64,000 bases of DNA from a virus. Positions 32,264-34,581 of this stretch are shown piece by piece. Under the pieces are notes generated by a model, which worked only from the letters and a program-made list of their open reading frames with translations, made no database searches and was not told where the DNA came from. A program made the position numbers and the translations under genes. How positions within the stretch are numbered: position 1 is the stretch's first letter; the number at the start of each line of letters is the position of its first letter. The stretch spans positions 128,335 to 192,334 of IMG/VR virus record IMGVR_UViG_3300049893_001984. One strand, given 5' to 3'.

Positions 32264-32476
32264 TCAGTATGGGCGCGTGCCCCGGATTAACTCTGAGGCG
32301 GCGTTTGCAAACGCCCGCCTTTGTTTCTGTGTTTTGAGAAGGAGCATAATTAAAGACTCCACTCCTAGCTCAAAACACCCGGCGATGACAATCCCAAGGA
32401 CGATGCCATGGGTTGCCATCATGTAACCTGTCACGGCCGCTTCCACGACCGCAACGACAAACGTAAATACGGCCAT
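32264..32476 (-). CDS. Small membrane protein
   Basis: Two hydrophobic segments, GGAGG SD. Confidence 0.55.
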   Translation of the reverse strand: MAVFTFVVAVVEAAVTGYMMATHGIVLGIVIAGCFELGVESLIMLLLKTQKQRRAFANAASELIRGTRPY

Positions 32477-32506
32477 TTTAGCGACCTCCTTGGGCCAAAA
32501 GTTTAA

Positions 32507-32594
32507 CCCCCCGGTGTGGGTTTATTGGTCTCTCTCGAGGGCCCTTTCGAGGAGTTTTTGGTGGTGTGTGGTTTACAGGCCGCACACCGGGGGG
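32507..32594 (-). other. Structured element downstream of tRNA-Ile2
   Basis: 12-bp stem CCCCCCGGTGTG/CACACCGGGGGG enclosing an inner CTCGA/TCGAG hairpin. Confidence 0.5.
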
Positions 32595-32647
32595 TATCTC
32601 TTACTACACATAGGCGTGGCAGGATTCGAACCTGCGACCTGGGGATT

Positions 32648-33356
32648 CCCGTTTGTGTGTGTTTCCACACTCCGTGGACTATATCATCGCCATACACTTT
32701 TCAGTGTTTAGGCGTCGGGAGCTTATGCGGTTATTAAGAGGACTTAACCTCTCCGCTAGTCTCTGCACCTTCCGCCGGTGTACCGGCGGCTCGGCTCAGT
32801 GTTGCCGTGTTTAAACCATACTTACGTGCCCATTTGCGAACAGCGTTGTCTGATACGCCAAAAAGCTTTCCAACAGAAACGACCGAGTTTTCACTCAGCA
32901 GCCTCTGCAAGCGTTCTTTTGATGGCCATTCAACCTTTCGCTGTTTGTTTCTGTAACACCCTTCAGAACAAAACTGCTTCTGCTTGTTCTGTAAGGTGTG
33001 ACCGCAAATACCGCACAGTTTTGGTTGTTTAAACGACGGGTTCACTGAATTCACCCGATTCATCCTATAGCTTTCGCATATAGGCGCACCAGAATTCATC
33101 CAAGCGTGGATCTTTGAGTGCTGGTCTGCGCTAACCACAAGGAGATTCTCTATCCTGTTGTTAGCTCTATCCCCATCTAAATGGTGCACAATCTCATCAT
33201 CACGGATAGACCGGCCTAGGTCTTTTTCCATGATAAAGATGTGTTCATAAACATAACCAAGCCAGTTGGCAGACTTCATTGCCTTTGGGTGGTCTGGTTT
33301 ATAAACAAGTCTGTACCCATTTAGAAACCTCACGCTTTTACTGAATTCTTTCATTG
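32648..33356 (-). mobile_element. Group I self-splicing intron (IC3, Azoarcus tRNA-Ile type), 709 nt
   Basis: P1 CTCAT/GTGAG with U-G at the splice site, P3 TCGGG/CCCGA, P4 TCAGTG/CACTGA, P7 GACTA/TAGTC, P8 GCGG/CCGC, P9 GTGTG-GAAA-CACAC, terminal G before AATCC. Confidence 0.93.
32734..33354 (-). CDS. Intron-encoded HNH homing endonuclease (HNH + Zn finger + HTH)
   Basis: YEH...VHHLDGDRANNRIENL...H..IH, CGIC..CSEGC, SVGKLFGVSDNAVRKWARK. ATG 33354 is 2 nt into the intron. Confidence 0.9.
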   Translation of the reverse strand: MKEFSKSVRFLNGYRLVYKPDHPKAMKSANWLGYVYEHIFIMEKDLGRSIRDDEIVHHLDGDRANNRIENLLVVSADQHSKIHAWMNSGAPICESYRMNRVNSVNPSFKQPKLCGICGHTLQNKQKQFCSEGCYRNKQRKVEWPSKERLQRLLSENSVVSVGKLFGVSDNAVRKWARKYGLNTATLSRAAGTPAEGAETSGEVKSS

Positions 33357-33400
33357 ATGAGTCCCTCGCTCTCACCGCTGAGCTACACGCCCCCTAAACA

Positions 33401-33464
33401 AGCTCGGCATGGGATTCAAACCCATCTGCACACGTTGTTACACGTGGCGTTTCTGAAGCCGAGC
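33401..33464 (-). ncRNA. tRNA-like element lacking a D-stem
   Basis: Acceptor GCTCGGC/GCCGAGC, CACGT/ACGTG arm with 6-nt loop, T-arm ATGGG-TTTGAAT-CCCAT. Confidence 0.55.
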
Positions 33465-33473
33465 GACCTCCGT

Positions 33474-33644
33474 CTACTTCTTCGCCTCCATAATGGCACG
33501 GCGAAGCAGTAACACCTTACCCGACCAGCTTTCGATCGAGTAGGTGATTTGCTCCCGTTGGAATCCAACCGCAGATCCGGCCGCCTTCTTCAGCTTGCCG
33601 AGTTTTGTCTCGGCGTCATACAACTCCCGCTCAACATTCGTCAT
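33474..33644 (-). CDS. Hypothetical 56-aa protein
   Basis: GGAGG SD before ATG 33644 (MTNVERE). Confidence 0.6.
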   Translation of the reverse strand: MTNVERELYDAETKLGKLKKAAGSAVGFQREQITYSIESWSGKVLLLRRAIMEAKK

Positions 33645-33670
33645 GTCTCCTCCAGGCCTTTTATCGTCCT

Positions 33671-33947
33671 GCCTAGGACACAAATTTCCTAAACAGCTTT
33701 TGGGGTGGCATGCTTCAGCGCCGTTAGGCTCCACATGCCACCCCTGGCAGCCAACCACCAGGTACGCCTGGGCGCCTAGTTTTCCGGGAGCTACCCCGGT
33801 TCAATCGTCGGTTAGGATCCGACTAGGGGGGCAGCCGACCCCCCGTGTTTCATGGCTCGTGGATGTTTTTGATCCCGTTAGCTTGTTTGCTCGGCGCTGC
33901 GGGATAGAAAATCAGGCTCAGCTTTGGATTTAATCGTTATCCTAGGC
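33671..33947 (-). ncRNA. Unassigned ~277-nt multi-stem structured RNA
   Basis: Closing stem GCCTAGGA/TCCTAGGC and six internal helices (see findings). Confidence 0.65.
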
Positions 33948-34025
33948 TCCTTTTGCCTTATTTTCCAGCGCCTCGGTCTTGTCTAGCGTTTTCATCCTTC
34001 TCTCCTTTTGCCTTTTCATCGTTTT

Positions 34026-34060
34026 GCCCCTTAAACTCGCCTTTTCGGAGTTTAAGGGGC
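34026..34060. promoter_or_regulatory. 13-bp perfect hairpin upstream of the RNA cluster
   Basis: GCCCCTTAAACTC/GAGTTTAAGGGGC, no U-tract on either strand. Confidence 0.55.
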
Positions 34061-34065
34061 CCAGC

Positions 34066-34581
34066 CTACAATCTGTCCACGTCGATGTGAGCGACGTAAC
34101 TGTCATTGTCGCTCACTTTGAACCTCGGCTCCTGAGCGCCGAAACCATCCGGCTGCTCGTCGGGGGAGCAACTCATTTCTTGCAGTGCCCCCTCCCTGGG
34201 ATAGAGCCCACCGTACGGCTCCGCCACCTTTTCAATATGCCTGAGAAAGGCGACGGCGGCTCTTCGGGATTGGAAATTCATATTCCAGTCATACTTCGAG
34301 TCTATGTTTGTGGTTGCCGAGACCACAAACCGACCCTTTTTGTCTTCGATGTCCAGGGCCTGTTCGTGGGCCTCTGACTCTTCCTTGTCTGCGTTATTAC
34401 ACGCAGAGCAAAGGTGTATCGTTTCGAATCCAAAGGAATCAGTTTCCCCCTGGACAACCAGCTCCGCTGGTTTATCGCAGAACTCGCACTGCTGCGGCTC
34501 CACTGTCTCTTTGATTCCACCCCCCCAATGGATTACTTTTCCATTGTCTTGAGGTATTCGGGCCAGTACTTTTCCTCTCAT
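34066..34581 (-). CDS. Hypothetical zinc-ribbon protein
   Basis: CEFC...CSAC, GGAGG SD. Confidence 0.6.
   Translation of the reverse strand: MRGKVLARIPQDNGKVIHWGGGIKETVEPQQCEFCDKPAELVVQGETDSFGFETIHLCSACNNADKEESEAHEQALDIEDKKGRFVVSATTNIDSKYDWNMNFQSRRAAVAFLRHIEKVAEPYGGLYPREGALQEMSCSPDEQPDGFGAQEPRFKVSDNDSYVAHIDVDRL

Follow-up and report, generated by a model that had tools for sequence, protein, structure and literature searches.

According to reviews, the endonuclease open reading frames (ORFs) of group I introns sit in one peripheral loop and overlap the ribozyme core only to a limited extent (PMC3073962). Overlap of ORF ends with core helices is known for up to 81 nucleotides (nt) (PMC3073962; PMC3984707): in the cases described as core creep, the T4 td intron with I-TevI shares 20 nt of P6a–P7, and the large subunit (LSU) intron of Synechococcus lividus, with 81 nt, shows the largest listed overlap (PMC3073962). 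In the tRNA-fMet intron of Synechocystis PCC 6803, which encodes I-Ssp6803I, the ORF lies in P1 and the overlap with P1/P2 amounts to 61 nt (Bonocora & Shub 2001; PMC3073962, Table 1). All phage introns known by 2014 resided in protein-coding genes, despite the many tRNA genes of phages (PMC3984707); phage tRNA introns were later called previously unreported by Devoto et al. 2019, who left their own examples unclassified (PMC6784885). Here we describe a tRNA(CAU) gene split by a 709-nt group I intron in a 64,000-nt stretch of DNA (the window), which spans positions 128,335 to 192,334 of the 192-kb IMG/VR phage record IMGVR_UViG_3300049893_001984. We consider it probable that this element belongs to the bacterial tRNA(CAU) type of mobile group I introns and that its endonuclease gene is interleaved with the ribozyme, its two domains being encoded in loops L1 and L5 and joined through core RNA. 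Mobile group I introns that encode HNH homing endonucleases are a known kind; what distinguishes this one is the interleaved dual coding and the phage tRNA host. In the full-text literature we found neither group I introns of phage tRNA genes nor endonucleases split over two loops, although few subscription journals were covered and a prior report is possible.

Among the described systems, the Azoarcus tRNA-Ile intron resembles the window intron in its tRNA(CAU) host, its site just after CAU, its short CAU/GUG P1 with an extension, the guide located directly 5′ of P2, the GAAA loops on P2 and P9, and the compact core; the comparison was made by features. Unlike it, the window intron carries coding insertions (245 nt in L1 and 210 nt in L5) and a P7.1-like hairpin, and it resides in a phage genome. 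The I-Ssp6803I intron is also a group I intron in a tRNA with a CAU anticodon and has its ORF in P1, overlapping the core. However, I-Ssp6803I is a PD-(D/E)XK nuclease encoded in one loop, whereas the window intron encodes an HNH enzyme over two loops, with an overlap of about 166 nt that extends from the P1 extension to P7.1. In the core-creep cases, as in the window intron, the 3′ end of the ORF runs into core helices up to the next stop and the length of the extension varies; in contrast, only the ORF ends overlap the core in those introns, whereas in the window intron core RNA also encodes the central stretch of the ORF that connects two folded domains. I-HmuI, from the SPO1 DNA polymerase intron (PDB 1U3E), is likewise an HNH-family homing endonuclease encoded in a phage group I intron, its catalytic part being N-terminal and followed by a helix-turn-helix (HTH) at the C-terminus, but its ORF lies in P8 with an overlap of 9 nt, its structural match to the model of the window protein is weak (Foldseek E 0.7), and there is no sequence-profile match.

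All features of the split tRNA locus are on the minus strand of the window. They are the following, with the basis of each assignment in brackets:

33357–33392, minus strand: 5′ exon of tRNA(CAU), 36 nt, ending in ...CUCAU (ARAGORN on the joined exons).
32648–33356, minus strand: group I intron, 709 nt, between tRNA positions 36 and 37, with a 3′-terminal G (RF00028 and exon joining).
32611–32647, minus strand: 3′ exon of tRNA(CAU), 37 nt (ARAGORN on the joined exons).
32734–33354, minus strand: 206-residue endonuclease ORF, ATG at 33354–33352 (intron nt 3–5) and TAA at 32736–32734 (ORF and Pfam).
33343–33356, minus strand: 5′ strand of the P1 extension, formed by CA, a bulge AUGAAA with the start codon, and GAAUUC; intron nt 1–14, residues 1–4 (pairs with GAAUUC-UG at 33097–33090).
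33098–33342, minus strand: L1 insertion, 245 nt, intron nt 15–259, encoding the HNH_3 domain (Pfam; ORF-less relatives have 6–10 nt here).
33087–33097, minus strand: 3′ strand of the P1 extension (GAAUUCUG) and guide GUG (33089–33087), reading M-N-S-G (covariation in relatives).
33064–33084, minus strand: P2 hairpin with a GAAA tetraloop, encoding P-I-C-E-S-Y-R (18 of 18 relatives form the hairpin, with differing stem sequences).
33027–33058, minus strand: P3 5′ (33058–33052), J3/4 AAUU, P4 5′ (33047–33043), J4/5 and P5 5′ (33039–33027), encoding N-R-V-N-S-V-N-P-S-F-K-Q (Rfam alignment; P3 and P4 covary).
32817–33026, minus strand: L5 insertion, 210 nt, intron nt 331–540, with the zinc finger (33015–32956) and the HTH (approximately 32919–32821) (invariant Cys, AlphaFold2, homologous free-standing modules).
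32757–32816, minus strand: P5 3′, J5/4, P4 3′, P6, P6a (7 base pairs, bp; UACA loop), J6/7 and P7 5′, encoding G-L-N-T-A-T-L-S-R-A-A-G-T-P-A-E-G-A-E-T-S (RNAalifold).
32727–32756, minus strand: extra two-tier P7.1-like hairpin between P7 5′ and P3′, with the last codons and a UAAUAA stop (stem covariation).
32648–32721, minus strand: non-coding 3′ part of the ribozyme, with P3 3′ (32721–32715, one U–U mismatch), P8 (32713–32689) and P7 3′ (32681–32676) (Rfam, RNAalifold).
Within 32648–32721, minus strand: P9 with a GAAA loop (32670–32657) and the terminal G (32648), non-coding (Rfam, RNAalifold).

The boundaries of the intron were defined by joining the exons computationally. When 33392–33357 and 32647–32611 are joined, ARAGORN recognizes a canonical 73-nt tRNA cloverleaf with anticodon CAU, which is the product predicted by an earlier reading of the sequence alone. 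The covariance-model check proposed in that reading also identified a group I intron: Rfam RF00028 matched 33111–32655 with 65.3 bits (E 2.6e-14; gathering score, 50 bits), covering the full model (1–253) with a large insertion inside P5, and this score is level with those of the relatives (60–74 bits). The exon CAU pairs with the guide GUG at 33089–33087, a U–G pair is possible at the 5′ splice site, and the last base of the intron is G (32648). Default tRNA scanning of the window did not detect the split gene; with introns allowed, ARAGORN called Pro(cgg) or Gln(ctg) with the intron displaced by 3 nt, and we rejected these calls, given that no placement other than CAU leaves the intron preceded by U and ending in G. 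The best E. coli matches of the joined tRNA are genes annotated as tRNA-Ile (88–90% identity), and no tRNA-Met ranks first. It is reasonable to regard the split gene as most resembling tRNA-Ile2, as had been proposed. Three tRNAs are present in the whole 192-kb genome, Met(CAT), Arg(TCT) and the intron-split Ile2(CAT), which is the only tRNA-Ile2-like gene. Arg(TCT) and Ile2(CAT) form the classic rare-codon pair for AGA and AUA, and the same pair is carried by Stx phages.

Mapping of the ORF onto the RNA established an anatomy in which the ORF and the ribozyme share sequence. The ATG lies 2 nt into the intron, at intron nt 3–5, as read earlier. The 71 nt of core located between the two domains (intron nt 260–330) read M-N-S-G-A-P-I-C-E-S-Y-R-M-N-R-V-N-S-V-N-P-S-F-K-Q. 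The peptide GAPICESYRMNRVNSVNPSFKQ is encoded by the internal guide sequence, P2 with its GAAA loop, J2/3, P3, J3/4, P4, J4/5 and the 5′ strand of P5; coordinate mapping thus bore out its previous assignment to the 5′ strands of P2, P3, P4 and P5, with the guide sequence included. Within this region, GGUGCNCC represents the guide sequence and the start of P2 in the RNA and Gly-Ala-Pro in the protein, and it is found too in the nearest free-standing genes. The L5 insertion is closed by CCGU-C-GUUUAAAC / GUUUAAAC-ACGG, and it contains the zinc finger and the HTH as the sequence-only reading had described. Intron nt 541–623 (P5′, J5/4, P4′, P6, P6a, J6/7, P7 5′ and most of the extra hairpin) correspond to a 25-residue C-terminal tail and the stop. 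That reading had assigned the tail to P4 3′, P6, P7 and P8; the first three hold, and P5′ also contributes, but the element taken for P8 is the P7.1-like hairpin, the true P8 being at 32713–32689. Altogether, approximately 166 of the roughly 254 ribozyme nt (about 65%) double as codons, whereas P3′, P8, P7′ and P9 are non-coding.

A further correction concerns the HNH-coding insertion, which had been located between P1 and P2. According to the position of the guide, this insertion lies in the P1 loop (L1), because the guide GUG is directly 5′ of P2 in every relative, and in ORF-less relatives GUG is 6–10 nt from the splice site. A more proximal guide, GUGAG (33333–33329), forms a perfect 5-bp pairing with CUCAU; it was discarded given that it is not conserved in the relatives, all of which have a GUG immediately before P2, flanked by bases that covary with those at the start of the intron. 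Regarding subgroup IC3, which was judged by features, the GAAA loops of L2 and L9 and the compact core agree with it; a receptor of the CCUAAG/UAUGG type, found in P5 of relatives, is absent from the window copy, and an extra P7.1 hairpin is a feature of the family.

The interleaved layout is conserved in a family. A search of 5.8 billion proteins with the endonuclease revealed 804 homologous clusters of the same architecture, 50–60% identical over 84–100% of the length, in two forms, a long one ending in ...TLSQAxxTxxEGAETSGEVKSS and a short one ending in ...YGLL. In seven contigs fetched through these homologs, and in further IMG/VR loci, a tRNA(CAU) is split after CAU by an intron of 704–778 nt with a terminal G; the split after CAU and the final G were present in the 28 relatives (28/28) whose exons could be rebuilt, and RF00028 matched in the same register in the four relative loci tested (4/4). 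The layout recurs in 20 non-redundant relatives, and 18 introns were compared once closely similar pairs had been set aside. GUG is directly 5′ of P2 in all of them, and within a GGUGC word in 16 of the 18.

The RNA covaries within this layout. The P1 extension is formed by UACGGUU/AGACCGU in locus L009 and AGGAGUU/AACUCUU in L024 (7 bp each), and by CCCG/CGGG in L010 and CUGAG/CUCAG in L016 (5 bp in both). The P3 and P4 duplexes keep their pairing by compensatory changes across the 18 introns. P6a is a perfect 7-bp stem whose sequence differs in 16 of the 17 introns that have it, and, according to RNAalifold, both partners of P6a pairs are changed in as many as 12 of 17 sequences. The P7.1-like stems also covary (GCGG/CCGC, GUGG/CCAC, CUGG/CCAG and CCGG/CCGG). 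When applied to the 3′ halves, RNAalifold recovered P6, P6a, P7, P7.1, P8, P9.0 and P9, with both-side changes in 30 of 42 pairs. The recurring layout and the compensatory changes in its helices are more than chance. These results sustain the central claim of the earlier reading, a tRNA group I intron whose endonuclease is split over two loops and read through the core, both for the window copy and for the family.

To obtain evidence about the coding function of the core, in-frame stops were counted over 22 codons from the guide sequence. The endonuclease frame contains none in the 18 introns, whereas the other two frames contain 34 and 40. The equivalent frame of 26 ORF-less introns of the same ribozyme family has 32 stops and is open in only 4 of 26. 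At the level of sequence comparison, these counts demonstrate that selection keeps the endonuclease frame open through the core. In the tail, the residues track the pairing of the RNA, as AAGTPAEG in the window copy against AACTQAEG in locus L005 follows the P6a stem. The ORFs of the 18 introns stop either 33–53 nt before P7, or 20 or 29 nt after the start of P7, which defines three stop classes (J5/4 or P5′; the L7.1 loop; the P7.1 internal loop). Short-form relatives, without the tail, stop in J5/4 or P5′, in a UAUGA word resembling half of the 11-nt tetraloop receptor. The tail appears to be a case of core creep as described by Edgell et al. 2011 (PMC3073962), because the 3′ extension of the ORF varies in length among related introns, and it is predicted to be dispensable, since many relatives stop before it. 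In contrast, the internal linker cannot have arisen by core creep or stop-codon loss alone, because two folded domains sit in L1 and L5 with 71 nt of core between them.

The protein encoded by these segments has two recognizable domains. Pfam HNH_3 (PF13392) matched residues 36–80 (33249–33115) with 43.7 bits against a cut-off of 24.8, and H57, H58, N66, N70 and H79 are invariant in 32 sequences including the window protein. Cys114, 117, 129 and 133, which form a CxxC...CxxxC zinc finger (ZnF), are also invariant and are followed by three helices, although the Pfam matches to HTH and treble-clef families in the window protein itself are only weak. An AlphaFold2 model built on the 32 sequences gave predicted local distance difference test (pLDDT) values of 85–97 for both domains (85–93 for residues 111–180), 47–59 for the linker and 51–61 for the tail; the low values fall exactly where the RNA core is read. 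A Foldseek search of the whole model against the PDB gave nothing at E ≤ 0.001, the matches to HNH proteins (I-HmuI, type I-F HNH Cascade) and to HTH proteins all being weak, and a profile search of PDB sequences with the endonuclease gave no match. Together, the domain matches, the invariant residues and the model support the assignment of the window protein as a putative HNH homing endonuclease with a separate DNA-binding module.

The relatives of this intron include ORF-less and free-standing forms. A pattern search for the 3′ core detected ORF-less introns of 232–238 nt in phage tRNA(CAU) genes. One of them (L174) lies in the same tRNA and has a near-identical core as the ORF-bearing loci L019 and L020, and this pairing fixes both insertion points. 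A search for viral introns without the L1 insertion with the pattern CTCAT..GTGCNCC..RTGAATTCA gave 25 matches, which were discarded because all were chance occurrences in coding DNA. The same 3′ core, including P7.1, was found in 66 tRNA genes of bacterial genome contigs (L191–L266). Fifty-seven are tRNA(CAU) genes, of the tRNA-Ile2 type (e.g., in Rhodocyclaceae such as Zoogloea and Azonexus) or of the tRNA-fMet type (e.g., in Clostridia), and these introns share the insertion site (tRNA 36/37); the remaining nine are other tRNAs, including tRNA-Leu. The ORF-less introns with this core, at this site, in the tRNA-Ile2-like genes of Zoogloea and Azonexus lend indirect support to the earlier comparison of site and core with the Azoarcus type. 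Nearly all of the 66 bacterial introns are ORF-less and measure 220–290 nt; five are long (562–782 nt), and in three of these (L201, L233 and L235) the endonuclease ORF was identified. The contigs with long introns may be phage contigs binned into metagenome-assembled genomes.

Free-standing homologs occur in the cultured jumbo phages phiKZ (gp296, PHIKZ296) and BRkr (RVBP21_2480), in Bacillus phage PBC2 (gp251), and in many IMG/VR loci within tRNA clusters. The phiKZ gene (L093; NC_004629, 268916–269398) lies beside tRNA genes, and the other two named homologs correspond to L094 and L095. These enzymes carry the HNH and ZnF–HTH domains in one polypeptide and are homologous to the window protein over both domains (35–43% identity for those of phiKZ, BRkr and PBC2), and they are encoded next to tRNA genes; in contrast to it, they have no ribozyme and no RNA-encoded tail, and their linker is of about 12 residues instead of 25. 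They fit the idea of Bonocora and Shub that free-standing endonucleases invade introns. No hidden intron was found around the phiKZ, BRkr and PBC2 homologs, nor around loci L026, L031, L034 and L036–L053. The phiKZ, BRkr and PBC2 homologs are bench-ready relatives for testing what this endonuclease family cuts.

Other combinations of these modules were also observed. Locus L166 (IMGVR_UViG_3300045988_137110) has an initiator-like tRNA(CAU) with a 555-nt intron of the same core and a different HNH_3 enzyme wholly in L5; the P3/J3-4 AUG serves as the start codon of its ORF, which illustrates creep into the core at the 5′ side of an ORF. Within tRNA clusters of phages, free-standing nucleases (L002:2845–3366 and L003:2815–3375) combine a different HNH domain, of the CxxC type, with a ZnF–HTH homologous to the module encoded in L5. 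Judging from such homologies, DNA-binding modules appear to have been shuffled among endonucleases that target tRNA genes. Just downstream of the split tRNA(CAU) of locus L024 (1431–1726), ARAGORN identified a tRNA-Leu(TAA) with a 212-nt ORF-less intron, so that two tRNA introns stand side by side.

Regarding expression, the ORF of most relatives starts at intron nt 40–76, after a leader of 40–76 nt in L1, and many leaders contain a Shine-Dalgarno (SD) sequence (AGGAG/GGAG). Those of L006, L010, L011 and L012 show a 10-of-12 match to TTGACA-17-TATAAT; for L006 and L012 a leaderless mRNA is predicted, because only 5 nt separate the end of the −10 box from the ATG. An RNA started at such a leader promoter would be without the 5′ exon, so it could not splice and would be free to be translated. 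Short leaders are present in three other lineages, with the ATG at nt 16 in L024, nt 17 in L030 and nt 12 in L033. In the first 40–60 nt of the introns of L005, L006, L009 and L012 we also observed GGTTCGA(AT) words like the tRNA T-loop (twice in L009), which overlap promoter-like −35/−10 matches and may be remains of tRNA halves or functional elements. For the window copy, the sequence-only reading had noted no evident SD, as the upstream sequence is the tRNA exon; this is correct for an SD in a leader of its own, but the anticodon-stem strand of the exon contains a GAGG 9 nt before the AUG.

Three routes remain for the window copy: translation from the precursor via GAGG, translation from the excised intron, whose 5′ end is 2–3 nt from the AUG, or silence. 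Expression of the ORF is favoured because every family-invariant residue is kept, and translation from the excised intron as a near-leaderless mRNA seems most likely, the precursor with its GAGG being the alternative. Since 65% of the core is coding, it is reasonable to infer that the passage of ribosomes and the folding of the ribozyme exclude each other. An ordered scheme, in which splicing occurs first and the excised intron is then translated, fits at least as well as mutual exclusivity. It is a tentative possibility that splicing gates the synthesis of the endonuclease: repair of the tRNA would have to precede translation of the excised intron (with the added G and CA, 3 nt before the AUG), ribosomes would unfold the spent ribozyme, and the interleaving would be a timing device rather than an accident. 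If splicing acts as such a gate, L006 and L012 would reach the same leaderless state by transcription.

Some observations weigh against a functional mobile intron with an interleaved endonuclease gene. The window copy has no leader and no room for a promoter or SD of its own, and a promoter scan of 32300–34100 found no sigma-70-like site. The U–U mismatch in P3 is shared only with L033. In the ORF-less intron of L147 (234 nt), no stop interrupts the endonuclease frame between the guide and the same UAA in P7.1; this could reflect chance, or an ORF-bearing ancestor from which both insertions were cleanly lost. A constant spacing of 38 nt from the guide to J3/4 was considered as proof of coding constraint and was abandoned, since at least five hand-checked ORF-less introns share it. 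In the protein tree, the intron-borne enzymes belong to one supported clade (95/91) that also holds three free-standing rows; given that its inner branches lack resolution and that the tree is only midpoint-rooted, we infer no direction of evolution. The lack of expression signals could mean that the intron still splices but that its endonuclease gene is a silent relic, the loss of the leader having removed the promoter-like site and the SD and left the intron immobile. Consistent with this, the ATG is at intron nt 3, whereas most relatives have it at nt 40–76, many of them with an SD and several with a match to TTGACA-17-TAnnnT, and no second copy of the endonuclease gene exists in the 192-kb genome. 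We consider such a relic unlikely, given that the ORF is intact over 206 codons with all the invariant residues, that the leaders of L024, L030 and L033 indicate that short leaders persist in the family, and that the GAGG and the nearly leaderless excised intron offer starts for translation.

Two separate products could also be proposed, an HNH polypeptide from L1 and a ZnF–HTH polypeptide starting inside the core (e.g., at Met98 in J2/3), with the open frame of P2–P5 being incidental. There is an AUG in J2/3–P3 of the window copy and of L007, the ORF of L166 starts at the P3/J3-4 AUG and runs into L5, and a stretch of 21 codons is open and in frame by chance about 12% of the time. However, Met98 is not conserved (V, G, I or E in the relatives), the frame is open in 18 of 18 introns against 4 of the 26 ORF-less controls, the free-standing homologs carry both domains as a single polypeptide, and the HNH_3 domain alone would be left without its DNA-binding module, which makes this arrangement very improbable. 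The same mismatch in P3 and the failure of default tRNA scanning to find the gene would be compatible with a non-working intron, that is, a tRNA gene destroyed by the insertion of an endonuclease gene with ribozyme-like segments in decay. This is hardly credible for an intron whose Rfam score is as high as those of its relatives, which has all its helices intact, the terminal G and the possible U–G pair at the 5′ splice site, whose exons join to a perfect cloverleaf, and which resides in the only tRNA-Ile2-like gene among the three tRNAs of the phage.

The interleaved mobile intron is the explanation that we favour, and it can be outlined as follows. The intron RNA would self-splice and restore the tRNA, and the endonuclease would cut intron-less tRNA(CAU) genes of co-infecting phages, driving homing. 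The insertion in the P1 loop would provide the HNH catalytic domain and that in the P5 loop the ZnF/HTH DNA-binding domain, while the RNA of the guide, P2, P3, P4 and P5 would join both in frame as a flexible linker of roughly 22 residues; the C-terminal tail would be a read-through of P5′, P4′, P6, P7 and the P7.1 hairpin. Because ribosomes crossing the core would unfold it, splicing and translation would have to take place on separate RNA molecules or at different times.

This family breaks both generalizations mentioned at the outset, given that it splits phage tRNA genes and that the coding sequence of its enzyme is spread over two loops, about 65% of the ribozyme being used as codons. It offers a natural system for how one sequence meets the constraints of an RNA fold and of a protein, in which the RNA-constrained parts are a disordered linker and tail, and it can reveal what prevents translation and splicing from interfering with each other. 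The coexistence of free-standing, ORF-less and interleaved forms also makes it suitable for studying the assembly of composite mobile introns. Finally, these genes escape tRNA scanners and their ORF is annotated as an isolated 'HNH endonuclease', which implies that the tRNA-Ile2 genes of phages are under-counted.

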